A program made the translations under genes and the position numbers. The notes below the pieces were generated by a model. It had not been told where the DNA came from, did not search any database, and saw nothing but the letters and a program-made list of their open reading frames with translations. Below are positions 18,679 through 56,059 of a stretch of 64,000 nucleotides of DNA, one piece after another (position 1 is the first letter of the stretch; the number at the start of each line of letters is the position of its first letter). Source of the stretch: Terriglobia bacterium (GTDB lineage Bacteria > Acidobacteriota > Terriglobia > JAJPHL01 > JAPKYU01); NCBI GenBank assembly GCA_965206645.1, contig CBDBKE010000001.1, positions 256,001 to 320,000 on the forward strand, given 5' to 3'.

Positions 18679-19267
18679 GAGTCTGTGTGGAAACTCGGTT
18701 TAGCTGGCTGGAAATCAAAAGAGATCATGATCCGCTCCAGAATTCTGGTGTTTCGATCTTCGCCGAGTCGCCGGTCCGGGAGTCTGCCGAACTAGCCTTC
18801 CTGATCTAGCTTCGGTTTGTTGCGCCACAGGCGGGTGAGGTTGAAGGCCGTTGCGGCCAGCGCGAACTCCACCGCGACCTTCCCCAGGCCCCGCCGCCGG
18901 AACTGCCGCATTCCACGCTGTTCTTTCAAAACCCCGATCACTGGTTCCACGATCGCCTTGCGCCGCTGATAAACCGCCCGCCCGGCCGGGTCGCGCAGCT
19001 TGCGTCGCATTCGCCGGTGTTCCGGATGCCGTACAGCAGGTGCTCCGGGCGCGCGTTGGCCTCGGTTCAGTTCCCGCGCCAAGTTCGAGTCGGGCACATA
19101 GACGTCCAGGCCACGCTGGGCCAGTTCCACGATGGTCTCCAAGCAAAAGAAGCCGCTGTCGGCGCTGACCTTCTGCGGGCGTTCCCGGCAGCGTCGCTCG
19201 ACCGCCTCCACCAGAGGGACCAGCGTCGCGTTGTCGGTGGCGTTTTGCCCCACGCGCTGCTCGACAA
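18679..19267 (-). mobile_element. IS1182 copy 2, 3' half (589 bp)
   Basis: Near-identical to the reverse complement of ~13405-13993; stops at CTGCTCGACAA. Confidence 0.93.
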
Positions 19268-19305
19268 GCAGGAGGTCGGAGGTTCGAGCCCTCCACCGCT
19301 CACCA
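19257..19305 (+). other. Left att junction carrying the 3' half of a tRNA-Val-like gene
   Basis: GACAA-GCAGG-AGGTC-GGAGG-TTCGAGC-CCTCC-ACCGCTC-ACCA: anticodon 3' strand, T-arm and CCA end. Confidence 0.85.
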
Positions 19306-19361
19306 TTTAACTTACTTGTTTTCATCACCCGTCTGCCTTGCCTCTCGTTGCCGAAGACGGA

Positions 19362-19387
19362 ACTGTAAAGAAACTGTCAAAAAACTG
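19362..19387 (+). repeat. Putative integrase arm-type binding repeats (left end)
   Basis: ACTGTAAAGAAACTGTCAAAAAACTG; near-identical ACTGTCAAGAAACTGTCAGAAAACTC at 55109-55134. Confidence 0.7.
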
Positions 19388-19390
19388 GCT

Positions 19391-20551
19391 CTAGATGGCC
19401 AGCGCTGTAAAGGAACTCGCGCCGTGCTCGTTCGCCTGTCGGTCGAGCTTGGACAGCGCTTCCCGCATCATGTTGAGCTTCGCGTGGCTGTAGCGCTTGA
19501 ACACCTGCGAATCGCCTTGTCGGAGCATCTGCGTCACGAAATGATCCGCCACGCCCCCGGCGCTGAGCCGGGTCGCAAACGTGTGGCGCAGCTCGTATAG
19601 CGAAAAATGCGGCAGCCCGGCGCGCTGGAGCGTCCGGTTCCACAGCTTTTGCACCGTCGTGATGTGCGGCTTGCTCAAGTCCATCCGCGAGCTCGGGAAC
19701 AGGTAGTCGGAATCGCCGCTCTGCTTCATCTGTGAGGCGAACGCTTGACGGGCTCTGTCGGTCATCGGCATGTCCGCGATACCATTCACCGTCTTGGAAT
19801 CCGGCAGATGCACGATCCCGTTCTCCAGATCGACCTGTCCCTTTCGCATCGGGATCAACTCCCGATAGGGCCGCAGCCCCATCTCCACCATGATCGCGAT
19901 GATGTTGCGCAGGTACAGGGGCGCGCAGGCTTCCAGCCAGGCCTGCTTCGAGGCGGTCAGATAGTGCGGCTTGCGCGTCGTGCCCGCCAACGCCACCGGA
20001 AACTCCACCCCATTACAGGGATTGACCGCCAGCCGCCGCTTCTTCACCGCCACGTTCAGGATACGTCTCAGGACGCGAAACTCCTGATGCACGGTGGCAG
20101 GTTTGAGCCTGCCGCGAAGTTGCAGCCCCAACTTGGTATGCACCCGCTTGCCTGTATTCAATCTGGTCATCAGGTACGATTCGATATCTTCCGGTGTGAT
20201 GTCCGATAGTCTGTTCTTGCCGAACCGGGGCCTCAGGAACTTCAACGCGCCGAGGTTCTGCACGTGAGTCTTCTCGCTCCGGAAGGGTGGTTTGGATCGG
20301 TTCTCAAGGAACCAGTCCGCCCACTCGTTGAACCTGATCTCCCCGCCCGGCGCGGCGCTCGGCAGCAACCCCTCGTCGCGAGCCACCAACCGTTTGCGCA
20401 TCACCTTCTCGGCTTCCCCTTTTTCTCTCTGCCCTGTCGAGGTCTGTCTCCACCTCCCGTTCTGCTCTCGATAGCTCATCCACCAGACGCGTGAATTGCA
20501 CCGCAGGTACAGGCTACCAGCGGTATTTCTGGGTCTACCTGTCTTGTTCAT
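19391..20551 (-). CDS. Tyrosine recombinase / phage-type integrase
   Basis: GLRPYRE (catalytic R), LPDSKT (K), YELRHTFATRL, MLRQ...VFKRYSH (Y); N-terminal arm-binding-like region; GGAGG SD. Confidence 0.93.
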   Translation of the reverse strand: MNKTGRPRNTAGSLYLRCNSRVWWMSYREQNGRWRQTSTGQREKGEAEKVMRKRLVARDEGLLPSAAPGGEIRFNEWADWFLENRSKPPFRSEKTHVQNLGALKFLRPRFGKNRLSDITPEDIESYLMTRLNTGKRVHTKLGLQLRGRLKPATVHQEFRVLRRILNVAVKKRRLAVNPCNGVEFPVALAGTTRKPHYLTASKQAWLEACAPLYLRNIIAIMVEMGLRPYRELIPMRKGQVDLENGIVHLPDSKTVNGIADMPMTDRARQAFASQMKQSGDSDYLFPSSRMDLSKPHITTVQKLWNRTLQRAGLPHFSLYELRHTFATRLSAGGVADHFVTQMLRQGDSQVFKRYSHAKLNMMREALSKLDRQANEHGASSFTALAI

Positions 20552-20753
20552 CGATTCCTCCATTCACATGAAATTGCTGGCGCCACTCGGCTAGCTCCGA
20601 CAATCGGAAGCGGATCGAGCGGCCCATCATGCGGTAATGGGGAATCTGCTTTCGCTCGACGTAAGCATACACCAGCGAGGGGCTGACGCCCAGGAAGCGG
20701 GCGGCGGCCTTCACCGTGATCGGGGCTTCCCTCGCTTCTGTGTCCAGGCTCAT
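20535..20753 (-). CDS. Excisionase-like HTH_17 DNA-binding protein
   Basis: ITVKAAARFLGVSPSLVYAYV....IPHYR....IRFRLSEL; overlaps the integrase start. Confidence 0.88.
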   Translation of the reverse strand: MSLDTEAREAPITVKAAARFLGVSPSLVYAYVERKQIPHYRMMGRSIRFRLSELAEWRQQFHVNGGIDEQDR

Positions 20754-20968
20754 CCTTCCTCCTCTACTCTCCACGCCGGACCGAGCGCTCCGTCAGATCC
20801 ACCTTCCGCCCCGGATCGGCGAGTCCGGCGGCTTGCGTCTTCGGGAAAGACGCCGTACTCCTGGGCGATCCAGGCCGGGACTTCCAGCGTCTCGTCACCG
20901 TCCCGGCCGAGCTCCAGGGCGAAGTCCCTGATGGTATTCACCCGTATGATTTTTTCTTCATCCCTCAT
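20750..20968 (-). CDS. Small hypothetical protein
   Basis: 72-aa ORF overlapping both neighbours in the operon. Confidence 0.45.
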   Translation of the reverse strand: MRDEEKIIRVNTIRDFALELGRDGDETLEVPAWIAQEYGVFPEDASRRTRRSGAEGGSDGALGPAWRVEEEG

Positions 20969-21923
20969 TGTGTTCCCTCCAGATCGGCTTGATGATCCAG
21001 TGGTTCTGTGGCGCGTCGTAGCCCTGGACGAGCAGCGCTTCCTCCACGAAGCGGCGTCCCTCTCGCCGTGTCATGTGAATCACCATGGCGATGCCGTCCA
21101 CCACGCCCCGGCAGGTCACCTCCCAGGGAAGCTCACCGCCGCCCTGCATGGCGCAACTGGCGATGCGCGACAAGGCCGACTCGGCGTTGTTGGCGTGTAC
21201 GGTGGTGAGGGAGCCGCCGTGTCCGGTGTTGAGGGCTTGCAATAGATCAGCGGCCTCGCCGCCCCGGACCTCGCCCACCACGATGTGATCCGGGCGGTGA
21301 CGCAAGGCGTGGCGGACTAAATCACGGATCGTCACCGCTCCGGTTGCCAGTCCGCGAGCCTCGAAGCGGACGCAATTAGAGCGCTCAATGCGAAGCTCAA
21401 GGGTGTCCTCGATGGCGACGATGCGCTCGTCGTTGGGAAGCAATTCAATAAGTGCGTTAAGCAGGGTGGTCTTGCCCGATCCAGTGCCGCCTGAAACCAG
21501 GATGTTTCGCCGGGAGCGCAACACCCGCTCGGCTTCCGCTCGCACGTCTTCGGGGAGTGCGCCTTGCTTCACGAGATCATCCGCCGAGAACGCCCGCTTG
21601 CCAAAGCGCCGCATGGTGATCGCCACTTGAGGACTCGCGGGCGGAACACAGATGGCAACCCGCGAGCCGTCGTCCAGGCGCGCATCGACAATCGGCGAGC
21701 TCGCCGGATCCAAGCCCAAAGGACGGGCAATGTGGATGGCCGCCCGCAATAGGGCCGATTCGTCCAGGTCCGGCGCGTCATGTGCCGTCAACCGCCCGGC
21801 CCGCTCGACCCAGACATTGCCGGGGCCGTTAATCATGATCTCGCTGACTTCGGAATCTTCCAGGGCGCTTTCCAATCCCGGTAGAAATGGTTTCAGGTGT
21901 TCCAGTCCACTCGCGGTGCTCAT
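20958..21923 (-). CDS. CpaF/VirB11-family secretion ATPase
   Basis: VSEIMING, VDARL.DGSRV, Walker A SGGTGSGKTT, IEDTLEL, ALRHRPDHIVVGEVRG, NTGH.GSLTTVHAN. Confidence 0.92.
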   Translation of the reverse strand: MSTASGLEHLKPFLPGLESALEDSEVSEIMINGPGNVWVERAGRLTAHDAPDLDESALLRAAIHIARPLGLDPASSPIVDARLDDGSRVAICVPPASPQVAITMRRFGKRAFSADDLVKQGALPEDVRAEAERVLRSRRNILVSGGTGSGKTTLLNALIELLPNDERIVAIEDTLELRIERSNCVRFEARGLATGAVTIRDLVRHALRHRPDHIVVGEVRGGEAADLLQALNTGHGGSLTTVHANNAESALSRIASCAMQGGGELPWEVTCRGVVDGIAMVIHMTRREGRRFVEEALLVQGYDAPQNHWIIKPIWREHNEG

Positions 21924-24049
21924 AATTGACCCGCCGCTTTCGCTCTCCAATACGAATGTGCGAGGGGCAGATAGTGAGGCTTGAGGTAGACCCGGCGCGG
22001 TTCAATCGACTGCGACCCGTCATAGGGCAGACAGATCGCTTGACAGTTCGAGAGCAGCGTGAAGTCTCGCGGGTGAAACACGGCCTCGCGTTGCTCCCGG
22101 AAAGACTTGGTCGCGCCGATGCTGCCCCCGCCTCCACCGGCGCGGCCCGACAGCGGGGAGACTTCCGCCCGCTTGGAGGTCTCGCTGATGGTGTAGGATC
22201 CCTTGATCTTCGCCACCTGCCCGCACATTTCGCTTGCAATCTTGGCGCTGGCGTCGTCGCTGAGAGACAGGAAAATCCGTGTGCGGAGCGTCTGCAACAG
22301 CGACCGCCATGCTTCCGAGCTTCCCAACACGGAGCGGAGCGAGGAAATGGATTGCGTGGCGACAATCGGGATGCAGCGGCATTGCCGGGTCAGCGCAAAG
22401 GATTTCTCATCGCCCGATGGATCGTCCTCACCCACCGAAGCGAAGGCTTGATATTCGTCACAGATAAAGACGGCAGGCCGGAAATAGACCCCCGGCGACT
22501 CCTTCATCTTGGTCGGGCGCATGAGAAGCGCCTGTAGCCAGGCGTTCTTGAGCATCACGCCCACGGCGCGGGCCAGCGCCGGGTTCGATCCGGCGGGCAT
22601 GTTCAAGGCCAGCACCTTGCCCCTTTCGATCAATTCATAGAGCGGGGGCAGGTGTCGCGGCCCGGCGATTCGTTCCTCTTCGACCGGCGGGATCGACGTG
22701 GGCGCGGGTTTGTCTCCTTCCCCGCCGTCCGGCTTCTTGTTCAGTTCCTGGGCTTCTTCCCCGGCCCGCTTCGCGGCCCTGGCCTGAACTGCAATGGCTT
22801 GCGGATCGTCGGGGACTTCCGGCGGCCCCGGACAAAACACCTTTGCCACATCCGGCATATCGAACATGGCAAGGAACACCGAAACCCCCTCCACAATCGA
22901 GGACTTCACTTTGTTGTCCAGCGTTTGCCAGTCGTTGACAAACCAGCGCTTCACCGCCTCCACTCGTTCTCTCACTTCGTCGCCGGGTCCGGGGTCCCAA
23001 ACCACCCGGTAGGTCAGCTTGAGCTCGTCCAGTTTGTTGAGCATGGGACGGGAGTAGGCGGCCCGCACTTCTTCCGTTCCCGGTATGTCTTTCCATAGCC
23101 ATTCAGCCAAGGTCATGATGTGGGCTTGGTATACGACCTCTGGAATGAAAACCGTGCCTCTGTTCAACTCGTCGCTCCACGCTTCGGCTTGCTCGATCTT
23201 GGCAGCGAAAAGGTCCGGGTCGATGGCGCAGCGGTAGACCTGCTGCAACGTCACCCACCGTTCCGGGAAGATTCGGTGAAGCTCAATGATCCAGCGGACC
23301 AGATTGGTATAGGCTTGCTGCCAGAACGGTTCCTTGCCCTTGCCGAATAGCTGGTTGAGAAGGCTCGAAACGGTGTAGGCCAGCGAGTAGGAATCGAGCC
23401 ACCAGGCCGAGAGCGGGTTCCATTGCCAGCGGTCCTTCATGCCAAGCTCGATGTAGTCTTTTCCCCGGCCTGCCTCGGTCAGGATTTGGCGGATGTCGTG
23501 ACAGAAATCTCCCTTGACTTCGAGCATGAGCGCTGCCGCCCGCATCTGTGGATTCGCCGCTTGCCAGCCGAGAAGTTGCTTAGCGAAGGGGTGCATACAA
23601 GCCGAGGTCTTGCCGGACCCGACGGCCCCGAAGATCGCCACGCCGGTATACAGCCCGCGCTCCGGGATGGTGAGCCAGGAGGGATTGAAAATCTCCCGCG
23701 CCTCGACCGGATGATGGACCTCCCCGATGACGATGGCCGGGGCCGTTTGCCGGGGTGAAAGCGGCCAGGTCGGGAGCGCCCCAAAGGGCGCAAAATCCCG
23801 CCGCCGCGATTCCAGCCAGACCTTCCAGACGGACAAGAGAACGAGGCCCGCGAGCATGACGGCGAAGAAAGGCGAAGCGTAGTACCAGAGCATCACCCAG
23901 CCGTAGAAGTTCGGGGTGTGGTAGTCCATCAGATCGAGCAAGGGACTATCCCCAAGCATGGGGAAGGGACGGTGGACAAAGCTCCACAGGGCGTACCCCA
24001 GCGCGCCGAAAAACAGAAGGATGTGAGGAATGAAGCGCCTCCATTTCAT
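21920..24049 (-). CDS. VirD4/TraD-like type IV coupling protein
   Basis: Two N-terminal TM segments, Walker A GAVGSGKT, KGDF, WNPL, FICDEYQ, ATQS. Confidence 0.85.
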   Translation of the reverse strand: MKWRRFIPHILLFFGALGYALWSFVHRPFPMLGDSPLLDLMDYHTPNFYGWVMLWYYASPFFAVMLAGLVLLSVWKVWLESRRRDFAPFGALPTWPLSPRQTAPAIVIGEVHHPVEAREIFNPSWLTIPERGLYTGVAIFGAVGSGKTSACMHPFAKQLLGWQAANPQMRAAALMLEVKGDFCHDIRQILTEAGRGKDYIELGMKDRWQWNPLSAWWLDSYSLAYTVSSLLNQLFGKGKEPFWQQAYTNLVRWIIELHRIFPERWVTLQQVYRCAIDPDLFAAKIEQAEAWSDELNRGTVFIPEVVYQAHIMTLAEWLWKDIPGTEEVRAAYSRPMLNKLDELKLTYRVVWDPGPGDEVRERVEAVKRWFVNDWQTLDNKVKSSIVEGVSVFLAMFDMPDVAKVFCPGPPEVPDDPQAIAVQARAAKRAGEEAQELNKKPDGGEGDKPAPTSIPPVEEERIAGPRHLPPLYELIERGKVLALNMPAGSNPALARAVGVMLKNAWLQALLMRPTKMKESPGVYFRPAVFICDEYQAFASVGEDDPSGDEKSFALTRQCRCIPIVATQSISSLRSVLGSSEAWRSLLQTLRTRIFLSLSDDASAKIASEMCGQVAKIKGSYTISETSKRAEVSPLSGRAGGGGGSIGATKSFREQREAVFHPRDFTLLSNCQAICLPYDGSQSIEPRRVYLKPHYLPLAHSYWRAKAAGQL

Positions 24050-24090
24050 GGGTCCGTCTGCCTTCCGTCAGCGCCCCCGCTGGGGGCTGC

Positions 24091-24385
24091 TCCGAGCCTT
24101 CCCGCAGGGATCAATGAGGACGATAGCGACCCCATGGGGCAGCGATAGGGGCATGTGACACAGTGCCTCTATCGGGGCCACATGACCCCCCGGTTTTCGG
24201 GGGGGTCGCTATCGTCCTCCCCGATTCTGCTCCTTCGGCGCAGCGGAGGCCGAGTGACAAGGGAGAGCCACAGAAGAATGAGAGAGATACGGAAATATGG
24301 AGTTGGGACACCCTTTGTCGAAATCGTGTGACATCCCCCCCTCTGTGACTGTCACATTTAACACGCGGCCCCCAGTCACACGAAA
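24091..24385. promoter_or_regulatory. Structured non-coding element upstream of the coupling-protein gene (candidate oriT/oriV), copy A
   Basis: 20-bp box 24091-24110; perfect 18-bp inverted repeat 24116-24133 / 24202-24219; internal hairpins; TGTGAC repeats. Confidence 0.55.
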
Positions 24386-24388: not shown

Positions 24389-25504
24389 GGCGTTGGTGCA
24401 TGAATCGTCCTCGGCTCCCCCGCTAGCATTGGCTCGGTGTTCCGATCCATCATGGAGATCAAGGGGGGCAACGTCATGGCCGCAGGGAAGTCGAGCCGAG
24501 TCAACCGCAAGTACAAGACGAAATGCAGAATCTGGAACTGGAGGGAGTACGAGCGGGGCCTCAGGAGCCGCGGCGACGTCACGATCTGGCTGAGCGAGGA
24601 GGCGATCGCCGCGTGGACACCGGCGAAGAACGGTCTCCGCGGAGGCCAGCGGCGGTACTCGAACCTCGCGATCTTGACCGCGTTGACGCTGCGGGTCGTC
24701 TTCCACCTGCCGCTTCGCCAGACCGAGGGTTTCCTAGACTCGCTGCTCAGCTTGATGGGCCTCGACCTCAAGGCCCCGGACCACACCACACTCTCGCGCC
24801 GGAACCAAATCGTTGAGGTGCCGCCTCTAACCCGAGCCCACGACGGCCCGATCCACTTGATCGTCGATTCCACGGGGCTCAAGATCCTGGGTTGCGGCGA
24901 ATGGAATTCGCACAAGTACAAGGCATCCAAGAAACGCCGGGACTGGCGAAAGCTGCACATCGGAGTGGATGACGAGGGGTTCATTGTGGCGGCCGAACTC
25001 ACGACGAGCAGCGGGGACGACGCCTCCGCCCTGCCGGATCTGCTCGACCAGATCGAGGCTCCCATCCGGCGTTTCACGGCGGACGGGGCCTACGACAACA
25101 GGGCGATCTACGATCGGGTCGGCGCGGCCGGTACAGAGGACGTCGTGATCGTGATCCCCCCTCGTCGCTGTGCGGTGTCCGCGGGGCCCACGGACGGCCC
25201 GTGGGCGCAACGAGAAGCGGCTCTTCAGAGAGTTCGTAAGATCGGACGACGAGAGTGGCAGAAGGAGTTGGGCTACCGACAGCAGGCGCGCGTTGAGAAC
25301 TGGTTCTTCCGATACAAGTCAGTGCTCGGAGGAAGCCTGAAGGCGAGGAACAGCAACGCGCAAAGGAAAGAGACCACGATCGGGTGTCACATCCTCAACC
25401 GGATGGCCGAGCTCGGCAGGCCGAAGTCCTACGCCGTGGTGTCATGAACGAGGGGTTGGGAAAACGGCCTGACTCGCGCCAAGGTTGAATCGTGCAACAG
25501 CGCC
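24389..25504 (+). mobile_element. IS5-family (IS903 group) element type A, transposase 24476-25447
   Basis: IRs GGCGTTGGTGCATGA / TCGTGCAACAGCGCC; NWREYE..L..RG, PDHTTLSRR, VDSTGLK, WRKLHIGVD, ADGAYD. Confidence 0.92.
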
Positions 25505-25791
25505 CCGAGGCGGCGCTAAAAACTTGGAGCAGCCGGGCGGGTGAGCAGAGCAGTCAACGGGAATATGGACCGAGCCGAAACGACCCGGAAGTGCAGGAGG
25601 AAATCAAGTACATCGAGACCGCGCTTAACAATGCGGACACAAGGATCATAGCGAAGTACGGAGGGGTCGAGGAAATCTCGGACAGGCTGATGGAACTGAA
25701 AGACCTTCCCAAGTCGAGCGGCCCCGGAGCCACCATCGACGACTACGAGACGTGGGTTTCTGACCGCTTGAGGGCGGAGGAAACAGTCTAG
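25505..25791 (+). pseudogene. 3' fragment of an unknown gene truncated by the IS5 element
   Basis: Open frame running from the IS end to a stop at 25791; no recognisable motif. Confidence 0.4.
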
Positions 25792-26997: not shown

Positions 26998-28617
26998 ATG
27001 GCGAGCCGGACACCCCCTAAGACGCGCACCCGCTCGGAAATGACTCCGCAGAGCACAGGTGCCACGACCGGCTATGAGGCCGAGCTTTGGCAGATGGCCG
27101 ACACCCTGCGCGGCTCGATGGACGCGGCCGAATACAAGCATGTCGTTCTCGGCCTGATTTTCCTGAAGTACATCTCCGATGCCTTCGAGGAGAGGCACGC
27201 CCGTCTCGAAGGCGAGAAGAAACAAGGCGCCGACCCGGAGGACCCGGACGAGTATCGCGCCGAGAACATCTTCTGGGTGCCGCCCGAGGCTCGATGGACG
27301 CATCTCAAAGCACAGGCAAAGCAACCCACCATCGGCCAGCTCATTGACGACGCCATGACCGGGATCGAGCGCGACAACCCGGCGCTCAACAACGTGCTGC
27401 CCAAGGACTACGCCCGCCCGGCGCTGGACAAACAGCGGCTTGGCCAGATCATCGATCTGATCAGCAACATCAGGGTCGGCGACGAGGAGGCCCGCTCCAA
27501 GGACGTGCTCGGCCGCGTCTACGAATATTTCCTGTCACAGTTCGCCAGCGCCGAGGGCAAGAAGGGTGGCGAGTTCTATACCCCGCGCTGTGTGGTCAAG
27601 CTGCTGGTCGAGATGCTGGAGCCCTATCGGGGCCGGGTCTACGATCCCTGCTGCGGATCGTCCGGCATGTTCGTACAATCGGTCGAGTTCATCCGCGCGC
27701 ACGCCACCGGCAACGGCAACGCTGGAAAAGCGCCCAAGGGCACCAAGGCCGACATCTCGATCTACGGGCAGGAGTCCAACTACACGACCTGGCGGCTGGC
27801 GAAGATGAACCTCGCCATCCGTGGCATCGACGGGCAGATCGCCCACGGCGACACGTTCCACAACGACCGCCACCCCGACCTCAAGGCCGATTTCATCCTG
27901 GCCAACCCACCCTTTAACGTCTCCGATTGGGGCGGCGAGCGGCTCACCGACGACAAGCGCTGGCAATACGGCGCCCCTCCCAAGGGCAACGCCAACTTCG
28001 CCTGGGTGCAGCATATGGTGCACCACTTGGCACCGGGCGGCACGGCCGGCTGCGTGCTCGCCAACGGCTCGATGTCGTCGGGCCAGTCGGGTGAGGGCCA
28101 GATCAGAAAAACCCTCATCGAGGCGGACCAGGTGGACTGCATGGTAGCGCTGCCGGGCCAGCTCTTCTATTCCACCCAGATTCCCGCCTGCCTGTGGTTC
28201 CTCGCCCGTGACAGGCGCAATGGCAAGCTCCGCGACCGGCGCGGCGAAGTGCTGTTCATAGACACCCGCAAGCTGGGCCGCATGGTGGACCGCACCCACC
28301 GTGAGCTGACGAATGAAGACATCGCCCGCATCACCGATACCTACCATGCCTGGCGTGGTGAGAAAGGCGCGTGTGAGTACGCCGACGTGCCCGGTTTCTG
28401 CAAGTCGGCGACATTGGAGGAGGTACGCAAGCACGGCCACGTGCTCACGCCCGGCCGCTACGTCGGTGCGGAAGCACAAGAGGACGACGGCGAGCCCTTC
28501 GCGGACAAGATGAAGCGGCTGGTTGCCGAACTGCGCCAGCAGCAGACCGAGGCCGGGAAGCTGGACGCCGCCATCAAGGCAAATCTCAAGAGCCTGGGGT
28601 TTGGGAACAGTCCGTGA
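26998..28617 (+). CDS. hsdM: Type I restriction-modification methyltransferase subunit M
   Basis: [38 protein letters not shown]. Confidence 0.95.
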
Positions 28618-30483: not shown

Positions 30484-31129
30484 CGGTGGTCTCAACCCAT
30501 CGACGCAACACTTTGCCTTGAAAGGAGGAGGTGGAGTGTATGCGGATGAAGCAAAGAGCTCGTCGCGGTTACACGCTGGCGGAACTGGAGGAGGTGTGGG
30601 ATCGGTGGAAACGAGGGGAGTCGCTCAAGTCGATTGGACGAGTGTTTTGTAAGCAGCCATCGTCTGTTTACCATCAGCTTGCTCCGTACGGAGGCATCCG
30701 TCCTCGGCCACCACGCCGTTCATGTTGGGCACTGACGTTGTCGGAGCGCGAAGAGATCTCTCGAGGCATTGCGGCACATCAATCGATACGATCCATCGCC
30801 GGGTTGCTGGGTCGCTCACCATCGACGGTGAGCCGGGAGATTCGGCGGAATGGCGGCGATAATGACTATCGAGCAGCGGAGGCCGATGAGCAAGCCGGGG
30901 AGAGGGCCCGCCGGCCGAAGCGGTGTCAGCTGGTCAAGCATCCACAACTACGACGGGTAGTGGCCAGAAAGCTCAGCATAAACTGGTCGCCTGAGCAGAT
31001 CGCCAGCTGGCTGAAACGAGCCTATCCGAAGGATCCGTCCTATCACGTGTCTCACGAGACCATCTACCGCAGCCTGTTTGTTCAAGCCCGCGGTGCGCTG
31101 AAGGCAGAGCTGATGCAGCATCTGCGGTC
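30484..31129 (+). mobile_element. IS30-family element, 5' part only (truncated by IS3)
   Basis: Matches the reverse complement of ~37065-37710; ends at IS3 IR TGACCAG. Confidence 0.9.
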
Positions 31130-32784: not shown

Positions 32785-32799
32785 CTGGCTATGTCGGAC

Positions 32800-39701: not shown

Positions 39702-39861
39702 GCCGATCCGAAAGGTGGTCTGCGAGATCCTCTCTCGGTCGAGATAGAGGAACGCTTCCCCCTGAGCAACTCGAAGCCCCATACCGCGATCCAATCACCC
39801 TAGCACCGCCCGAAGTGACTACTGATAAATTCGCCTCAGCGGATTCTCTTCTGGCGCGCTT

Positions 39862-40659: not shown

Positions 40660-40708
40660 AGTATTGAGCCTGAAATGTGCTATCGCGTATCTAGCTGGAA
40701 TTGACCGG

Positions 40709-43336: not shown

Positions 43337-43369
43337 GGAAATCAACTCCAAGAGAAAAACTGCGGTCTC

Positions 43370-44818: not shown

Positions 44819-44863
44819 CGGGGTGTTCTCCTCCAGAGTTTACATCATGTTAGGGGCTGTCAA

Positions 44864-46522: not shown

Positions 46523-46526
46523 TCAA

Positions 46527-47080
46527 TATATCAATTCGCAATGAACACGCTGGGACGCAGATGCGTGTATATTTGCAGTCGCCGGAAGGCCAAAAAGGAA
46601 ATTCCGGTTAAGGAACTGATTGTCTCCCGGATCGAAACGGCGCTCGGCCTCCCCTCGCGTCCTAAGCAACCGATGATCGAGCGTATCCGCGTCCTGCTCA
46701 ACACGGTAGAGCGGATTGTCTTCAGCCAATCGGAAGGGTCCGAGTATGAACAGCAGCTGCACCAACAGCGCCAGCAGCAGGCGCGCGGACTCTATGACGA
46801 TCTCTGGCGAGTGCTGCGCTTTAGTGCAGTTCATGACGGCTAGGTTAAGGAGATGCCCACATCCGAGCGGTTTTTAGACCTGCTCGGACTGCTGGAGCTA
46901 GAAGTGTTCAAGCGGAGAAGAATCTGGGGCCCAAGGAGGGCACTGGTGAAAATAGGGGAGCCGATAAACCTGGCAAACTACTTCCCGCGTTATCAAACTG
47001 ACAAGCGAGGTGTGCTTCAGGAGGTCACGATCTCGCTAGAGTCCTCAGTTCGGCAGATGTTGGCCGAACTGAGGCCCTAG
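46527..47080 (+). pseudogene. C-terminal fragment of a probable glycerol-phosphate acyltransferase, internal TAG at 46841
   Basis: Two in-frame ORFs separated by one stop; PTSERFLD..LE.EVF and RRALVKIGEPINL tail; lies upstream of an Aas-like gene. Confidence 0.5.
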
Positions 47081-47141
47081 CCCCAGGGGTCTGGCCAGGA
47101 GTGGGACCGAGGATTTTCGCCTGCTTGCAGTGGAGGTTCTA

Positions 47142-49346
47142 ATGGGCTTGTCTTATCGGCTGTTGCGATCCGTCATTTGGTTGCTCACTCGCACCGTCTT
47201 ACGCGTCCGGATCGTCGGACGGGAGAACATCCCCCTGACCGGTCCGGCTCTTCTCATCTGCAACCACATTTCCTACGCGGATGAATTTTTGGTGGGGATC
47301 TGCGTCCCGAGATTCACCCGGTTTCTAGTGAGCAGGCCTCATTACAAGAGCAGGACTCTGCATTGGCTGTTTCGCACGGTCCAGGTCCTCCCAGCCGGAG
47401 GCGGCGGTCCGAGGGAAGCGGTCGAATCCGTTGCGCGAGCCCGAGAAGAGCTTCGTCAAGGCCACCTGGTTTGCGTCTTTCCGGAAGGGGAGATGAGCCG
47501 AACGGGAAATCTGCTTCCCTTCCGTAAAGGCTTTGAGAAGATTGCTGAGGGGTTGGACATCCCCGTGATCCCCCTACACCTGGACCGACTCTGGGAAACC
47601 ATCTTCAGTTTCCGAGGCGGCCGGTTCTTCTGGAAATGGCCCGGACGAATTCCGTATCCGGTCACGGTCTCCTTTGGACAGCCTTTACCTTCGACAGCGG
47701 AAGCGCCGCAGGTGCGGCAGGCGGTCCTGGAGTTGGGGAGGGAGGCGGTCGAATACCGCCGAACTCCGGGAGACCTGTTGCACCTGCGCTTCCTCAATGT
47801 AGCCAAGCGCCACTGGTTCTCCTTTTCCATGGCGGACTCCACCGGTAAGCAGCTCACCTACGGGCGGGCGCTGGTGGCCTCGCTATTGTTGTCCCGCTGG
47901 ATCCGAAAACATCGCCCGAGAGAATCCATGGTGGGACTCCTCCTCCCGTCCTCGGTCGGGGGGGCGCTGGCGAACATCGCGGTACTCCTGGCGGGAAAGG
48001 TACCGGTCAACCTCAACTTCACCGCAGGGCCGACGGCTATGGCCACGGCTATCGAGCAGTGCGGGATCCGGACCCTCTTGACCTCCCGCCGGTTCCTCGC
48101 CAGAGCGAAACTAGAGGAGATCGAAGGGATGGTATTCCTCGAAGAGGTGTTGCCGCAGATCACCTTTTGGCAGAAGGCACTGGTTTCCCTGTCTGCCTTT
48201 GTGCTCCCGTCACGGGTTCTCCGGTTTTGGTACGCTCGTGAACCAGTCCGCCCGCACTCGCTGGCTGCCGTCATCTTTTCCAGTGGGAGCACAGGCATCC
48301 CTAAGGGTGTGATGCTGTCTCACCACAACGTCCTGTCAAATGTTGAGGGAATCGAGCAAGTCTTCTGGGTCACCGCAACAGATCGCATTATGGGCGTTCT
48401 TCCGTTTTTCCACTCCTTTGGATTTACGGGGACCCTCTGGTTTCCGCTTCTGGCTGGCATTGGTGTCGCGTATCACACCAATCCCTTAGATGCCAAGACC
48501 ATCGGAGAGATGGTTTCTAGATACCGGGCCACGATCTTGGTCTCGGCGCCAACATTCACCGCCGGGTACCTTCGCAGATGCACAGCCGAAGAATTCGCCA
48601 CGTTGCGTTATGCCATCGTCGGCTCCGAAAAGCTTCAGCAGTCACTGGCCGAGAGCTTCAAGGAAAAATATCATCTCGATCTCTTGGAAGGCTACGGTTG
48701 CACGGAGATGGCTCCAATTATCTCTGTGAACGTTCCGAACGTCGCTGACGGAGGCGTGCGCCAGACGGGTCTGAAGATGGGCACGGTGGGGCATCCCATT
48801 CCCGGCGTTGTCGCCAAAGTAGTGGATCTCGAAACCGGTGAACCCCTACCCGCCAACAAGGAAGGAATGCTGCTCGTCAAGGGTCCCAACCGAATGATGG
48901 GCTACCTGGGTCAACTCGAAAAGACGGCGGAGGTTCTGAGAAACGGCTGGTATGTTACGGGAGATATCTCCTGCATCGACGAGGATGGTTTCATCCGGAT
49001 CACGGACCGGGCGGTGAGATTCAGCAAGATTGCCGGTGAAATGGTTCCTCATCTGAAGGTTGAGGAGAGGATTAGCGAGATGATCGACGGCCTTCCCTGT
49101 GCCGTTACCTCGATTACCGCTGAGCAGAAGGGCGAACGTCTGATGGCCTTTTATAGCAACAAGGACGTCGCCCCGAGCGAGCTCTGGGATCGGCTCTGCC
49201 GGTCTGACTTGCCGAAGCTATGGATTCCCAAGCGACATGACCTTTTTTGCATCGAGACGATCCCAACCCTCGCAACAGGAAAGACGGACCTGCTGGAGAT
49301 CCGAAACATGGCCCGGCAGATGGCAAAGGCAGAAAGATATCAGTAA
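47142..49346 (+). CDS. Aas-like bifunctional acyltransferase / acyl-ACP synthetase (no MFS domain)
   Basis: PlsC motifs NHISYAD and FPEG; AMP-binding FSSGSTGIPKG, EGYGCTE, WYVTGD, RFSKIAGEMV. Confidence 0.88.
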   Translation: MGLSYRLLRSVIWLLTRTVLRVRIVGRENIPLTGPALLICNHISYADEFLVGICVPRFTRFLVSRPHYKSRTLHWLFRTVQVLPAGGGGPREAVESVARAREELRQGHLVCVFPEGEMSRTGNLLPFRKGFEKIAEGLDIPVIPLHLDRLWETIFSFRGGRFFWKWPGRIPYPVTVSFGQPLPSTAEAPQVRQAVLELGREAVEYRRTPGDLLHLRFLNVAKRHWFSFSMADSTGKQLTYGRALVASLLLSRWIRKHRPRESMVGLLLPSSVGGALANIAVLLAGKVPVNLNFTAGPTAMATAIEQCGIRTLLTSRRFLARAKLEEIEGMVFLEEVLPQITFWQKALVSLSAFVLPSRVLRFWYAREPVRPHSLAAVIFSSGSTGIPKGVMLSHHNVLSNVEGIEQVFWVTATDRIMGVLPFFHSFGFTGTLWFPLLAGIGVAYHTNPLDAKTIGEMVSRYRATILVSAPTFTAGYLRRCTAEEFATLRYAIVGSEKLQQSLAESFKEKYHLDLLEGYGCTEMAPIISVNVPNVADGGVRQTGLKMGTVGHPIPGVVAKVVDLETGEPLPANKEGMLLVKGPNRMMGYLGQLEKTAEVLRNGWYVTGDISCIDEDGFIRITDRAVRFSKIAGEMVPHLKVEERISEMIDGLPCAVTSITAEQKGERLMAFYSNKDVAPSELWDRLCRSDLPKLWIPKRHDLFCIETIPTLATGKTDLLEIRNMARQMAKAERYQ

Positions 49347-49407
49347 CCGTTGCCAGGTGCTTGCTGGACCCCCCGGAATGTTAGGCCGGCTCGATCACTA
49401 GGAGGAA

Positions 49408-50300
49408 TTAACTCCTGGTGATGAATTCATCCAAATTCAGCAGGAATTGGCACACCCCGAACCAGGCCACCGCCTCCACAGGCTCGATCCCTTCCAGATC
49501 AATGGCGGGGAATAACTTTTCAGCCTCAGGGCCTTCGGGCGTCCGCAGATCAACGATATACAACCAGCCCTCCTGCTGCTGTGAAGCTGCCTCTTGCAGT
49601 GCTGGATCATCGGGACCAAATGTTTTGATGACGTGATGCATTAAGCGGATAAACGCCGGATTGGGGCGAAAGTGTTCAAGCGGGTTAAGCCGGCCCTGTG
49701 TGTGAGCGAGAAGATGACGCTGTTGGAAAAAGCGCGTAAGGGAAGCGATGTCGGCGGTGGCGAGATAATTGCCATAGTGCTTGCCCGAGGCCGCAAACCA
49801 GAGGTCGCTGCCATCTCTGAGGTTCTGAAAAGCGTTGCGACGCAGTGGCGGCAATGACGAGTAACGGGTATACAAGGCCTCCGCATAACGCTGGAATGCG
49901 GTGCCGGCACTTTGAAGGCCGTTCTCTGCGATAAGACGAACGGTGATCTCCGCCGTGTCCCGGTCGGGGATAGCAGCGCGGACTTCCGGAAGGGAGTCAA
50001 GAGCGCTGCGGATGCTGCTGACGGCCTGGCTGCACATCAAGTCGACAGCGTTGTGGCCGCAGGCCGGGCAGAAAAATGCTGCTCCAATAACCGCGTAGCG
50101 GCAGCCACAGGCGGTACAGATAATTTTGAGTCGCATCGGCCCTGCTGCCCCCGGCGGCAGCAAGACGGGCTGAAGTCGGCTGTTCACCTTCATTGTGATG
50201 TGGATGAAACTGTTTCGTGGCTGGCGCCGGTTCCAAGAGGCCGCGTCTCACTTCATCGCAGGGCCAATTCGCTGCCGTACATGGGCAACAGCGGCCTTAG
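49408..50300 (-). pseudogene. Chimeric frame of three gene fragments: Zn-finger/HEPN-like piece, unknown piece, DUF1553 C-terminus
   Basis: CTACGC...FCPACG and RHLLAH (49702-49719); last 38 aa end LLNLDEFITRS like the gene at 40709; in-frame stop upstream near 50248. Confidence 0.55.
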
Positions 50301-50384
50301 AGGGATGGAAAATAGGACGCCGAGGATGCCACCGAATCCGGCGATCATCGTGGTTTCTCAGTAGTCGAACTCGTTCCACACGCC

Positions 50385-50679
50385 CAGGATCACCAGCGCC
50401 GGAATTGTGAAAATCATGCCAGCTGCCACGCTTTCGCCGGCCGAAGCCGCGGTTTGGACGATGTTGTGCTCAAAGAATGTTCGAATTGCGAAATGGCCGC
50501 AGTATGGCCATCGCGATGACGGCGGCCGATACCGTCAACCCGGCGAACAGGCCCAGATACATATTGGCCGCACCCAGGATCACTGCCAGAAAGGCGCCCA
50601 GAAAAAACGACTTCAGGGTGATTTCGGCAAGGTTCGTCGTCGGGGAAACATAGGGCTTGTGAGGTGCTGTTTGAGACAT
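50385..50679 (-). pseudogene. OPT-family oligopeptide transporter N-terminal fragment, frameshifted
   Basis: EITLKS..LG......GAANMYLGL.AGLTVSA, then [23 protein letters not shown] in another frame. Confidence 0.8.
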
Positions 50680-50843
50680 GCGGGATGGCATATTCCAAAC
50701 CGGGGAACGAGCCCAGCGATCTTGTTGGTATGACAAGAATTAGGGCTAATCCGCATAGTTCACCAGTAGGACCAGAAGCGGGTGAAATGGTAACGCGGTC
50801 CGCCCCCGGATTCCCAAGAGTAACCCCAGGACGCCAGGGAGGC

Positions 50844-51959
50844 TTACTCAGGGATCGGCGCCGGAGCCTGAACCTGCGTCATCAAATCATCGTCCCATTC
50901 GCCATCGACCACTACATGGGCCAGGGCGCCCAACTCTACCGCCTCGATCAGGTTGTGGGTGAGGTACGCATAGACGCCCGGCTGCCTGAAGGTGTAGATT
51001 GCCGCACCAGCGGAGCCGCCACGGATGAACCAGGTCTGAAGCCCGTGGGCAGGGGGATCGGCGAATGAGCCCTGCTCCCACACGTAGTCACCATGTCCGC
51101 CGATAAGGTGCGGTCTAGAGTCCCGGTTGGCTTGGGAGTGGATGAACAGGACGGTCTCGCCAACCTTGGCCTTCATCGCCCCATCGCCGGTGAGCGCGCC
51201 GACCCGGCCATTAAACACCACATGGGACGGTGTGAGCGTGCGCATTACCTTAAGGACATCGGCGATGCCGTCGGCGGGACTTTTGTACTTCATGAAGTTG
51301 CCGTCGGAGTCTCGGGGAATGTAGTAGTCCTGCTCGCCGACATAGTAGGCCTTGTCGTAGCGGATGGGGCCGCCATCGCGGTCCTTGAGGCCGTCTCTTG
51401 GCAGCACCATGAGGGCCCCATTCATGCCGGAAACAACATGATATGGAATCATTGATCCACCCGGTGCGCAGTGATAGATGAAGGTGCCCGGCTTGATCGC
51501 CTTCCAGCGGAGCAGGACCTGTTCGCCTGGTTGTACGTGCGTCAGGGCGCCCCCGCCGAGCGCCCCAGTTGAGGCATGAAAGTCGATGTTGTGCTTGAAG
51601 ACATTGCCATTCGGATTCTTCAGCGTGAGCTCGACATAGTCCCTCTCGTGGCAGATGATCAGCGGCCCCGGAATGGAGTTATTGAACATGAGAGCGTCGA
51701 TTTCGGTCCCATCGTCGTCGATCACTCGCTTGCCTTCGTGGACGATAAGCTCAACCTCGACAATCTTCGGCCCGGCGGCGGCGACCTGCTCATGCTCAGG
51801 AACGAAAGGCGGGTCGACAAGCTCCTGCTTGACGCGTGGTAGTCCACTAATGTCCGCCTGGGCAGAGGGGGCGGCTGCCGCCCCCGGTTGAGTCATGGCT
51901 GACATGGCGGCCAGCGAGCCACCAGCCTCCAGAAACCGGCGTCTGCTGATGTTGAACAT
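50844..51959 (-). CDS. nirK: Copper-containing nitrite reductase
   Basis: Tat signal SRRRFL; HNIDFHA, YHCAP...YHVVSGM Cu ligands; PHLIGGHGD; [11 protein letters not shown]. Confidence 0.95.
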
Positions 51960-52257
51960 GGACAATCCCTGCCTATTCTTAGGATGTCGGTGTCTGTCCG
52001 CTGAAACTTCCCTGGAAACCAACCCGTTCTCGTTTACACTGCACGGCTGATTCTCTCATGCGCCGACAGAGCCCCACAAGGAGGGGGGGACGCTGACACG
52101 CTCGGAAAGTTCATCACCAGGTAACGCCACGCCTCGTCCCGTCTTACCCGTCTTGTCGGTTCAGAGTGGCTAGATCGTGTGGTTGAAAGACCGGAGGGTG
52201 GGGATCGATCAAAATCGGAGGAACAACCCCATTCAAAGCAGATTGCCCATGCACCGG

Positions 52258-53215: not shown

Positions 53216-53249
53216 CGCGTGCGGCGCGAAGTCCAACAGTCGAGTCACC

Positions 53250-53357
53250 GCCCACGATTCGAACGCCGCCGTGGCCGCCGCGTACGGTTGGTCGGCGGAC
53301 ATCTCCGACGACGAGGTTCTCCGCGAGTTGCTGGCGCTGAACGGCGGCGAGAGGTGA
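53250..53357 (+). pseudogene. Extreme C-terminal fragment of an MmeI/YeeA-like type IIG/IIL R-M enzyme
   Basis: AAVAAAYGWSADISDDEVLRELLALN matches the conserved D.AV.AAYGW.....D.EIL..LL.LN tail. Confidence 0.65.
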
Positions 53358-53425
53358 GCAAGCACGGTGCGGCGCGATCCGCCGGACGGGCCGACGACGC
53401 GCCCGCTTTGACCGGAGATAGCCCC

Positions 53426-54373
53426 ATGCGCAGCCAAGTTCAGTTCATTATCGTCGGCGCGATCCTCGTCTTCCTGGGCATCGGCACGGACGGACAGCCT
53501 CGCGGGGGCGTTGTGGCGCACGCACAGGATTCCTGGCGTGGCCTGACCGTCGTGCCGGAACGGCGTTGCTCGCCCTACGACTCGGACGATTACCGATACC
53601 CGCAGTCGGTCGAGGATGGGATCATCAGGGAACTCGGCGGCGTCTACGGTCCGTACACCGGACGCTGGTTCGCGAGCAAATCCGAGACCGACATCGAGCA
53701 CATGGTGGCTCGGTCCGAGGCGCACGACAGCGGCCTGTGCGCCGCCGATGCGGCGACCCGCCGGCGGTTCGCGACCGATCCGCTGAACCTGACGCTGGCC
53801 GGACCACGAGTCAATCGTTACCAGAAGAGCGACCGTGACGCGGCGGACTGGCTGCCGGCGCAGAACCGGTGCTGGTTTGCGGCGCGGGTGATCGCAGTCC
53901 GGCAACGCTACGGGCTGACCATCGATCGGCGTGAGGCGAACGCTCTGGACGCGGCGCTGTCCGGCTGTGCGGGGACTGACGTGATTGTGTTCGGCCGTGG
54001 CGACACGCCTCCGGCAGCGACGCCGCTTGCTGCTGGTGGATCCGAAGTGGTCGCGGAGTGGGACGACAATCGCAACGGACGCATCAGTTGCGCGGAGGCC
54101 CGCGCGCACGGCATCGCCCCGGTGACGCGCAAGCACCCGGCGTATCCGTTCATGCGGGATGGCGACGGTGATGGCGTGGTCTGCGAGTCCGGGGGCAGAA
54201 GCTCGGTGGCGGCAAGCCCGTCGCAGGGACGTGGTGGCGCGGGGAGCGGTTGCGGGCCGTACCGTAACTGCACGGCGCTCAGGCGTGATCATCCCAAGGG
54301 GGTTCCGCGAGGGCACTGCGCGTACCAACGCCGCATGGACCGCGACAACGATGGGCGAGCCTGTGAACGCTAG
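53426..54373 (+). CDS. Secreted HNH (DUF1524-type) endonuclease with two Excalibur Ca-binding domains
   Basis: Signal peptide; DIEHMV..SEA.DSG, RRRFATDPLNL, N..KSDRD.ADWLP; CAEAR...DGDGDGVVCE and YRNC...DRDNDGRACE. Confidence 0.78.
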   Translation: MRSQVQFIIVGAILVFLGIGTDGQPRGGVVAHAQDSWRGLTVVPERRCSPYDSDDYRYPQSVEDGIIRELGGVYGPYTGRWFASKSETDIEHMVARSEAHDSGLCAADAATRRRFATDPLNLTLAGPRVNRYQKSDRDAADWLPAQNRCWFAARVIAVRQRYGLTIDRREANALDAALSGCAGTDVIVFGRGDTPPAATPLAAGGSEVVAEWDDNRNGRISCAEARAHGIAPVTRKHPAYPFMRDGDGDGVVCESGGRSSVAASPSQGRGGAGSGCGPYRNCTALRRDHPKGVPRGHCAYQRRMDRDNDGRACER

Positions 54374-54654
54374 CGGCCCAGGGAATCGAGTACCGAACTC
54401 CTGCCCGAAGGCGGGCCGGCCGGCCGGGGAATCGCCGCCGGTCTGTGCGTCTGACGACCTCCGACGACAGGTTCTGGTGCGGGTTGCTGGTGCTGAACGG
54501 CGGCGACTACTGAGCGAACCGCGGTGCGGCGGGGTCCGCGGACGGTTCGGATGGTCGTCTGGATTCCCGCGCGGAAAGTGGTAATCGATGGGGGAATCAT
54601 GGCCGGCATGATGACAGTAAGACGTTATTTATGAATGCCTTGCTGGACTCCGGC

Positions 54655-54875
54655 GATTCACGCTGCCAGGACGGAGCTTCGCCGCCAGACAGTCACCGTC
54701 TCGATTAAACAGCAACAGCGGGTGGTAACACATGGACTCGAAGTGCCCGTTGTAGGCGCTCTGCTCCTGCTCGCCATAGACCGGAATCTCGGTTGAGTCC
54801 ATATCCAGCACCGCTCGGTAGTGCCAATGGATTGCTTCTGCCTTGCCGATCAGTTCCCGGTTGAGCCGAGTGATC
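54655..54875 (-). pseudogene. Internal fragment of an IS1380-family transposase
   Basis: LDMDSTEIPVYGEQEQSAYNGHFES.CYHPLLLF..GDCLAAKLRPG, similar to the gene at 45088-46416. Confidence 0.85.
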
Positions 54876-55108
54876 TGCCGACCGATGGCCACGTCCTGGC
54901 TTTGTCGGGCTTAAAGGCAAAGAAGGAAATAGAGAGCGGTCACTACAGCTTCGCTGTGGACTCCGAAGCAGAGAGTGGTGGGTTAGGGAAAGTAGTTCCC
55001 CCGGCTCGACAAAGCGCGGCCTACCGAGGAGCCGGGCTATTGCAGATCAAAAACCATTACTGCAACAACGTGCTGCACAGCCCGTAGAGCATGACCGTGG
55101 CAGCAACG

Positions 55109-55254
55109 ACTGTCAAGAAACTGTCAGAAAACTCGCCCATCAAGAGGGCTAGGCGTAGGCGTTGCGAGCGAAAGCAGACGCCCTGAAGTTGTGTAAGAGC
55201 AACGAGAGGAAGGAGTTGGTGGAAAACCGTGGAAGACGCCAGCCTGCTCGACAA
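55109..55254 (+). other. Right att junction of the integrative element
   Basis: Arm repeats at 55109-55134; GCAACGAGAGGAAGG inverted relative to CCTTGCCTCTCGTTGC at ~19336-19351; core CCTGCTCGACAA. Confidence 0.8.
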
Positions 55255-56059
55255 TCAGATGATCTTCGCTGACCGCCACCTCCGCCGTGTAACCCAGCGT
55301 GAATCCCTTGCGGTCGCGCAAGAACCGGCTGTCGGGATCGGTTTCCGAACGCCGCTTCAGCCCGCTTTTGCGCAACCGCTCCAGGCATCGCGGGATTTCT
55401 TCCAGCCGCTTCTCCAGCGCTGCCATCTGCTTGCCGCTCAGTTGCTGGCCAGCCGCTTCCTCGCAGGACTGCGCGTCACATTGTTTCTGCCAGCGACGAA
55501 TCTGCCGCCGAATTTTGGCTCGCTCTGCCCGCAACTTGGCCACCGTCTCCACCCGGTCCCGCGAGGCGTTGGCCGCCACCCGCGTCGAGTCCATGGCCAC
55601 GTGTCCCAGCCGCCCCATTCCCAGCGACCGCGCCAACTCCACCACCTGTGTGAACAGATCGTTCAGGGCACGGGCGTGCCGCGTCCGAAACTGGTTCAGC
55701 GTCCAAAAGTCCGGCCCCGCTCCGGCCGCCAGATAACGGAACGCCAGGTCCTCCCGCACCCGCTGTTCCAGACGGCGGGCCGAGGTCACGCCCAGCGCGT
55801 AGGCATACAGCCACACCTTCAGCAACAGCGCCGGATGATAGGCCGGGCGGCCTTCTTCCACCTAGCCCTGCTCAAACGCACTCAGTTCCAGCCGCTCCAC
55901 AACTTGGTGCACAAAAAAACAGATGTGATCTTCTCCCTGCACCTCCCGCACGCTGGGCGGCAGCAGATACGCTTGCTCCGGGTTGTAGGTCAAGAATTTC
56001 ATCGCGCCTACTTAAGGCGCATTATACGTGACTCGCAAAAGCGGTTTTCACACAGACTC
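55244..56059 (-). mobile_element. IS1182 copy 2, 5' half (also carries a TAC>TAG nonsense change near 55862)
   Basis: Matches the reverse complement of 12600-~13415; 589 + 805 bp = 1394 bp. Confidence 0.93.

Follow-up and report, generated by a model that had tools for sequence, protein, structure and literature searches.

Candidate reciprocal insertion of a decayed anticodon-loop integrase element into an IS1182 transposase gene of a Terriglobia bacterium

The stretch of DNA analysed here, called the window, is 64,000 nucleotides long and comes from a Terriglobia bacterium; it corresponds to positions 256001-320000 of contig C1 in a genome (designated G000) of 4.4 Mb, 4 contigs and 61% G+C. 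Two copies of an insertion sequence (IS) of the IS1182 family lie in it, one intact and one split by a segment of 35,987 bp (19268-55254, counting one copy of the core repeat), which an initial annotation had taken for a tRNA-targeting integrative element inserted in the transposase gene. The features that define the split copy and the two ends of the insert are given below, with attL and attR for the left and right attachment sites, P' and P for the arms of the element, and B and B' for those of the target.

12600-13993, plus strand: IS1182-family copy 1, intact, with the unoccupied site at 13401-13415
18679-19267, minus strand: IS1182 copy 2, C-terminal half of the transposase (target arm B), its final 11 bases being the core CTGCTCGACAA
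19257-19267, plus strand: attL core, the left half-site CTGC followed by the 7-nt spacer TCGACAA (presumed overlap)
19268-19305, plus strand: tRNA-Val 3' half on the element, tRNA positions 39-76 (GCAGG, variable loop, T arm, acceptor strand, CCA)
19306-19390, plus strand: P' arm, with direct repeats ACTGTAA/ACTGTCA (19362-19379) and an inverted motif (19330-19351)
19391-20563, minus strand: tyrosine integrase, 390 aa, open frame (PF00589, E 3e-19, 69.7 bits against a cut-off of 27.1)
20535-20774, minus strand: Xis-like HTH_17 protein, 79 aa (PF12728, E 1e-13)
54913-55243, plus strand: P arm (right end), with arm-type repeats at 55109-55126 and the terminus ...GAAGACGCCAGC
55244-55254, plus strand: attR core CTGCTCGACAA
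55255-56059, minus strand: IS1182 copy 2, N-terminal half of the transposase (target arm B'), TAG at codon 47

The transposase of copy 1 (407 aa) scored 321 bits with the NCBIfam IS1182 model NF033551 (cut-off 270), and the terminal inverted repeats of the family were present (termini GAGTCTGTGTG... and ...CACACAGACTC). Both halves of copy 2 (18679-19267 and 55244/55255-56059) could be aligned without gaps to the reverse complement of 12600-13993, over 1394 columns; an intact IS was rebuilt from end to end, as had been predicted from the summed lengths, and the only columns shared by the halves were the 11 bases of the core. This indicates that the insert entered a single IS copy by one reciprocal event. 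The direct repeat at both junctions was reproduced as well: the left junction reads ...cgcgCTGCTCGACAA/GCAGGAGGTCGGAGGTTCGAGCCCTCCACCGCTCACCA, and the right one ...gccagcCTGCTCGACAA/TCAGATG.

Arm-type repeats, ACTGTAAAGAAACTGTCA (19362-19379) and ACTGTCAAGAAACTGTCA (55109-55126), are found in the same orientation at the two ends of the insert, together with an inverted motif of 11-16 bp (CCTCTCGTTGC, 19341-19351 versus 55199-55209), and the integrase (int) and xis genes sit at the left end; all were recovered where they had first been described. The pattern CTGCNNNACAANCAG occurs three times in the window, compared with 0.03 occurrences expected from shuffles. Copies of the P arm, 87 to 98% identical, were found at about 15 places in G000, and also in a sister genome of the same genus (G003) and in a further related genome (G001), each copy stopping at an att junction. 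Residues R231, K257, R326 and Y358 of the integrase align with XerA (5hxy).

The tRNA half that opens the insert (19268-19305) is identical at 37 of 38 positions to the 3' half of tRNA-Val(TAC) and lies 85 bp from the int stop codon. As in an attP, a tRNA 3' part running from the anticodon loop to CCA adjoins int. The initial annotation had proposed tRNA-Val(GAC) as the cognate tRNA. ARAGORN predicts three tRNA-Val genes in G000, and the search for a cognate among them did yield a match, with another anticodon: the arm of tRNA-Val(GAC) is CTACC-TTGACAC-GGTAG, mismatched to the core, and its 3' half is unrelated to that of the element, whereas tRNA-Val(TAC) (C4 c2048746-2048822) has the arm CCTGC-CTTACAA-GCAGG. 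The latter gene is occupied: it is followed by a sequence 98% identical, over 153 bp, to the left end of the element, and the integrase there is 97% identical. At neither end of the insert was a rebuilt tRNA predicted by ARAGORN, both flanks being IS halves.

Four integrase paralogues of 90 to 100% identity are encoded in G000, three of them at tRNA-Val(TAC), tRNA-Pro(GGG) (93%) and tRNA-Ala(GGC) (90%), and the P' arm is conserved in the siblings at these three genes. The sibling at tRNA-Pro(GGG) spans C4 1637806-1674606 (36.8 kb); there the tRNA is rebuilt and the displaced tRNA half lies at the far end. Canonical attR sites were found in relatives at tRNA-Arg(TCT) and tRNA-Val(TAC). The Val-type sites, present in G001 and G003, have the sequence GACGCCAGCCTGA-CTTACAA-GCAGGAGG... 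(right half-site GCAGG), from which an attP core CCTGA-CTTACAA-GCAGG can be deduced. In the pairs at tRNA-Pro and tRNA-Ala, attL and attR are identical from the first base of the 7-nt loop onwards. Since the halves of the split IS add up exactly and its insert has the end topology of these canonical siblings (tRNA half and int at one end, P arm at the other), a single insertion event is indicated.

In many of 77 related loci taken from public genomes, a tRNA gene lies about 90 bp beyond int and converges with it. The tRNAs concerned are Val-CAC/TAC, Pro, five Arg species, Lys, Asp and Ala, and integrase genes that differ by less than 1% were found at different tRNAs. Judged from these sequences, the elements form a family of Acidobacteriota in which a tyrosine integrase would recombine in the 7-nt anticodon loop of a tRNA gene, the tRNA 3' half being carried in attP. 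A subfamily of integrases, 49 to 65% identical to that of the insert, was also observed upstream of its tRNA, in the same direction, on the 5' side (G000 C4 2048945-2050066 and C4 498742-501295; loci L081-L083, L085, L097, L101 and L106). At tRNA-Val(CAC) (C4 499984-500060), an integrase is present on either side and the arm repeats are inverted. Islander contains 159 islands with 5' tDNA fragments (PMC4383910).

We then considered the site within the IS. GCTGC-TCGACAA-TCAGA matches the Val(TAC) arm at 11 of 17 positions; it resembles the primary attB and lies outside a tRNA, as secondary attachment sites do. Such sites are frequent in this integrase family. Among 26 non-tRNA attL junctions from several genomes (a few re-registered by hand, some sites paralogous), GC stood directly before the 7-nt spacer in 14 and TGC in 9, while GC at 12 other offsets was seen in 0 to 4 of the 26 (binomial 1e-8 for the spacer-adjacent GC). 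Another secondary site lies in the IS3 orfA gene (CTGGAGAA/GCAGG, in several metagenome-assembled genomes). Sibling elements are also targets and are inserted in each other's int genes at CTTGC-CTGTATT-CAATC and GTGA-TGCGCAA-GCGG, and in each other's xis genes at CCCGC-TTCTTGG-GCGTC (G000 C4 1068392 and 2061876; L058, L059, L066, L072, L073, L077, L030 and L109); this may represent interference between elements.

The IS1182 site itself is occupied more than once. G000 has about 19 copies of the IS at 98% identity, with 15 intact copies of the site CTGCTCGACAATCAG besides the window attR. A second right-junction remnant was found at C3 148756-149867, where 342 bp of P arm are joined to an IS half; the arm ends in the canonical CCTGA ahead of TCGACAA and the IS. 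This is the outcome predicted for a heterologous event by a Val(TAC)-type element, and it confines the crossover to TCGACAA. In G003, the occupied IS copies are of a different sub-lineage; an identical attL lies within the IS, with an outer flank unrelated to that of the window, two attR junctions are present, and one reversed junction joins the P arm to the other IS half (CCTGC-TTGTCGA-GCAGCGCG). In G000, G001 and G003, a search for the partner expected for the reversed junction (IS N-terminal half joined to P') matched nothing but 10 intact IS copies. The proposal that a multicopy IS can be a repeated landing site is thus borne out by the occupied site in G003 and the C3 remnant.

Beyond what is observed, namely the reciprocal junctions, the canonical tRNA sites, an IS site occupied in G003 as well and the GC-N7 preference at other secondary sites, we consider it very probable that the insert is an integrative and conjugative element (ICE) of the anticodon-loop type, now decayed, which its integrase placed into the IS1182 site. 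A circular Val(TAC)-type element would have recombined once, through Int, with GCTGC-TCGACAA-TCAGA in the transposase gene. In this site, (C)TGC would serve as the left half-site that the family prefers and xCAG as a partial right one; the 7-nt spacer between them, which has ACAA at its end as the Val loop does, is presumably the overlap between the two strand exchanges. The reciprocal insertion, at an anticodon-arm-like site, that the initial annotation had put forward is supported.

How the element came by the overlap TCGACAA is a separate question. The spacer is the same at attL and attR, both in the window and in G003. With ICEBs1, a heterologous spacer leaves unlike attL and attR after replication (PMC3715440). 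The identity of the two spacers here implies that the incoming attP already had TCGACAA, or that repair equalised the junctions. The chances seem to us about even that a first heterologous event transferred TCGACAA and the C at position 31 from the IS to the element, whose attP would then fit every IS1182 copy; the lineage would have kept both, leaving the 15 intact IS copies as ready landing sites.

The other origin to be weighed is a host with the tRNA-Val(GAC) arm CCTGC-TCGACAA-GCAGG-AGGT, as primary site or as the place of capture; back in a host that lacks such a tRNA, no site would then match the overlap better than that in IS1182, which is identical over 11 contiguous bases. An origin of this kind had been the original idea of the initial annotation, and it has points in its favour. 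The window 20-mer at 19257-19276 matched at least 120 metagenome stretches, and about 107 of the 120 matches listed are tRNA-Val(GAC) genes with precisely this arm, that is, with C33; ARAGORN called Val gac in 7 of 8 metagenome loci tested among them. The same overlap in attL and attR is explained without further steps, as is the P arm ending in CCTGC here and in CCTGA in canonical Val(TAC) elements. Moreover, the IS site matches the rebuilt core at 14 of 17 positions, its 15 intact copies being among 95 genome sites with at least 14 matches. On the other hand, among 399 further genomes of the class the 20-mer occurred only at the IS junction of G003, it was missing from 150 other genomes of the phylum, and the host's own tRNA-Val(GAC) has the different arm given above. 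Neither the CGGAGG T arm of the element nor an integrase of this family occurs in any of the 120 matches listed, three of which have integrases at 24 to 37% identity. The tRNA half of the element is that of the host's tRNA-Val(TAC), the C3 remnant pairs the canonical CCTGA arm with the same overlap, and no element occupies the single-copy coding site at C2 158329, which matches at 16 of 17 positions. We regard this origin as unlikely. Either origin would preserve the conclusion drawn on the insertion itself.

The C33-type tRNA-Val(GAC) loci (L141-L260, among the matches listed) belong to at least three backbone types, some of them gut Bacteroidales-like. It had been argued that the overlap may be IS-derived because the loop has C where tRNAs have an invariant U33. 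The cautious statement holds, as capture from the IS remains the leading reading; the argument does not, since C33-loop tRNA-Val(GAC) genes are common in metagenome contigs and the rebuilt core equals these natural arms, which come from other phyla. U33 invariance was accordingly rejected as proof of an IS-derived overlap.

If a single old insertion were at the root of all these junctions, those of C3 and G003 would have arisen by vertical or horizontal inheritance, IS-mediated rearrangement and gene conversion, and the IS would not be a recurrent target. The genomes are indeed saturated with copies of the IS and of the element and are visibly rearranged; in G003 the attL (0.217 Mb) is far from the attR junctions (1.618 and 2.885 Mb), one junction is reversed with its partner not found, and the element ends at IS junctions are 97 to 98% alike across genomes. 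Comparison of the occupied IS halves points the other way, each being nearest to an intact copy in its own genome. The left half of the window differs at 3 positions from its nearest intact own-genome copy, compared to 10 and 13 from the occupied halves of G003; for the right half, the figures are 7 for the own-genome intact copy, and 9 and 12 for the occupied halves of the other genome. The occupied half at L128 of G003 has 5 differences to the intact copy L125 of the same genome and 12 to the window half; those at L129 and L130 have 7 and 9 differences to the nearest intact copy in their own genome, and 10 and 13 to the occupied halves of the other genome. The C3 half of G000 differs at 4 to 5 positions from an intact own copy and at 6 from the window half, in the same genome. 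This favours several insertions into resident IS copies. In addition, the outer flanks differ on both sides, and the C3 junction differs at position 31, exactly where the canonical arms differ. We conclude that descent from one insertion is improbable. The window flanks (16800-18678 and 56180-58200) had no match in G001 or G003, which precludes an empty-site comparison.

A TAC-to-TAG nonsense change at codon 47 (window 55795-55797), present in 7 of 19 copies in G000 and in 3 of 3 copies examined in G003, marks an IS1182 subfamily into which every occupied copy falls. Given its presence in so many copies, it was rejected as a sign of shared descent of the window and C3 junctions.

Contigs from four public runs were compared with 18600-20700; none bridges 19267/19268, which neither supports nor refutes the junction. 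Their loose ends are intact IS, tRNA-Val 5' halves and canonical tRNA junctions, meaning that those samples hold other arrangements. An assembly artefact, or homologous or transposase-mediated recombination between IS copies in place of the integrase, might be suspected from the unbridged junction and the roughly 19 near-identical IS1182 copies, but is very hard to credit for a break that lies inside the IS at a tRNA-arm-like core, away from the IS ends, with exactly complementary halves and the same junction in an independently assembled genome.

Several observations nevertheless weigh against integrase-mediated insertion at a recurrent, arm-like IS site, or against parts of that proposal. 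No excision product was seen, nor any attP-like junction among the sequences examined. The two histidine positions of the catalytic set correspond to Tyr323 and a Gln in the XerA alignment. As many as 7,767 17-mers in G000 match the Val(TAC) arm at least as well as the IS site, 33 of them at 14 or more of 17 positions; overall likeness is therefore unremarkable, and it was rejected as evidence of mimicry. The narrower pattern CTGC-N3-ACAA-N-CAG has 21 occurrences in G000, of which 16 are the IS site and one is tRNA-Val(TAC), but it was set post hoc from the positions shared by the IS site and the Val arm. In the integrase tree, the IS-borne copies are not united, and the window copy groups with the Val(TAC) copy of G000 (support 81/91). 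Differences between IS copies are few, and intragenomic gene conversion could mimic independent events. If TCGACAA was acquired in a first heterologous event, the identical spacers demand a second round or repair; finally, the rebuilt core is identical base for base to a natural tRNA-Val(GAC) arm, which forces a coincidence of 3 to 4 bases on capture from the IS.

The remainder of the insert contains the following features.

20958-21950, minus strand: VirB11/TrbB-like secretion ATPase (PF00437, E 1e-49; TIGR02788, 225 bits, under the cut-off of 250)
21920-24139, minus strand: VirD4/TraG-like coupling protein (PF12696 and PF10412), truncated upstream by an IS5-family element at 24389
24389-54912: IS-ridden cargo region, comprising the features below
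24389-25507: IS5
26998-28617: hsdM
29375-30652: hsdS, a type I restriction-modification specificity gene, running into an IS30 fragment at 30484
30484-39332: IS30, IS3 and IS5 copies
39862-40659: GntR regulator
40709-43351: DUF1553 protein
43370-44818: DUF1501 protein
44859-46525: IS4
47130-49346: acyltransferase/AMP-ligase fusion
50844-52022: NirK
53219-54373: GmrSD_C/Excalibur protein

An integrase, an excisionase and intact att ends are present, as in an ICE. The conjugation module is reduced to VirB11 and VirD4, no search aimed at relaxases having been made. In the sibling at tRNA-Pro(GGG), int, xis, VirB11 and VirD4 are followed by VirB8, TrbI/VirB10, CagX/VirB9, an 807-aa VirB4-like ATPase, TrbC/VirB2 and ArdC, and G000 has 4 to 5 conjugation gene sets of this type. 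The VirD4-like protein of the window is 94.6% identical to residues 86-825 of the sibling's protein, while the sibling's VirB2, VirB4, VirB8, VirB9, VirB10 and ArdC gave no tblastn match within 19268-55254. IS account for about 9 kb of the 36 kb, roughly a quarter, and 11,932 of the 35,987 bases occur at least 6 times in the genome. By its gene content, the insert would be a decayed ICE that is not self-transmissible: the mating-pore genes would have been lost later to IS activity, and movement would be possible only via Int/Xis together with the type IV secretion system of a sibling. The integrative nature given to the element by the initial annotation is thus upheld, while its intactness is not, the mating-pore genes being missing and about a quarter of it being IS.

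Parts of the cargo are duplicated. The block from GntR to NirK (39380-52095) is repeated at C1 231907-239052 (99.9%) and, inverted, at a contig end (C1 366241-376929); this is either a real segmental duplication or a contig-end assembly effect. The hsdM region, at 94% identity, adjoins the right ends of other elements at C2 6368-9269 and C4 9765-12708. Outside the insert, 14373-18644 encodes a 1423-aa fusion of a Toprim/type IA topoisomerase with a DEAD/Helicase_C/RecQ_Zn/HRDC helicase; the 3' end of its gene is duplicated, with an IS terminus, at C4 1127385-1128085. IS1182 copies adjoin a GC-rich palindrome GGCCCCCGGCGCCGGGGGCC and TATA at the end of an IS3-family element (12575-12599 and 56060-56090; L125 and L128 in G003), on either side and in either orientation, as if a hairpin were the target of nested IS insertion.

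Genomic islands and ICEs with an anticodon-centred attP in tRNA genes were reportedly described by Williams in 2002 (Islander class 'A'). Islander counts 2083 islands of this kind (PMC4383910). The likeness lies in an integrase adjoining the tRNA 3' end, an attP running from the anticodon loop to CCA, and a displaced 3' fragment at the far end, and the G000 siblings fit the class exactly. The window copy does not, as it lies in a protein-coding IS gene with no tRNA rebuilt; a further difference is that near-identical integrases of this family are found at many different tRNAs. In ICEBs1, the primary attB lies in a tRNA gene, with 5-bp inverted repeats around a 7-bp crossover spacer, and in its secondary sites repeats and spacer are partly retained, 2 to 12 of 17 positions being mismatched (Menard and Grossman 2013, PMC3715440). 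The IS site, which departs from the Val(TAC) arm at 6 of 17 positions, is similar. The ICEBs1 secondary sites, however, were obtained by attB deletion and are scattered single-copy genes with unlike attL and attR spacers and poor excision (PMC3715440), whereas the window element has a multicopy IS site, repeated natural use and identical spacers at both ends. Phage-inducible chromosomal islands embedded in the late genes of helper prophages (PMC10111431) are likewise a case of an integrase lineage found repeatedly inside a gene of another mobile element; they target a gene of the helper prophage and gain a regulatory advantage by it, while here the target is an IS transposase gene with no regulatory link evident. 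Engineering of the Ms6 attP core (PMC1762012) redirected integration among tRNA genes, with the address residing in DNA; that change was engineered and concerned the T loop, as opposed to a natural one in the anticodon loop with a non-tRNA target. In the titles and abstracts found by searches on Acidobacteria ICEs and on secondary attachment sites with insertion sequences, no IS was reported as an ICE attachment site.

The event is secondary-site integration by an anticodon-loop integrase, a known mechanism. Three things are new: a multicopy IS gene is used recurrently as a target, the overlaps at the two ends are identical, and evidence from the whole family places the address largely in attP DNA. 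It is conceivable, if on balance doubtful, that the integrase reads little beyond GC-N7-GC, so that the 7-nt attP overlap is the address, rewritable by one heterologous event, and that one lineage was re-addressed in this way from tRNA-Val to IS1182. If true, each IS copy, and each genome that the IS invades, becomes a landing pad; near-identical integrases at 10 or more tRNAs would be explained, as well as the insertions in int, xis and IS3 orfA of other elements.

For annotation, a tRNA 3' half beside an integrase is no proof of a tRNA target, and the anticodon of a rebuilt attP can mislead. Integrases that target tRNA genes are usually seen as faithful to one gene; in this family, canonical sites and many off-target sites are found in the same genomes. 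Were the address to reside in the 7-nt attP overlap, islands would have a simple path to change target, an IS could spread landing sites for ICEs, and an integrase could be redirected by editing a few attP bases.

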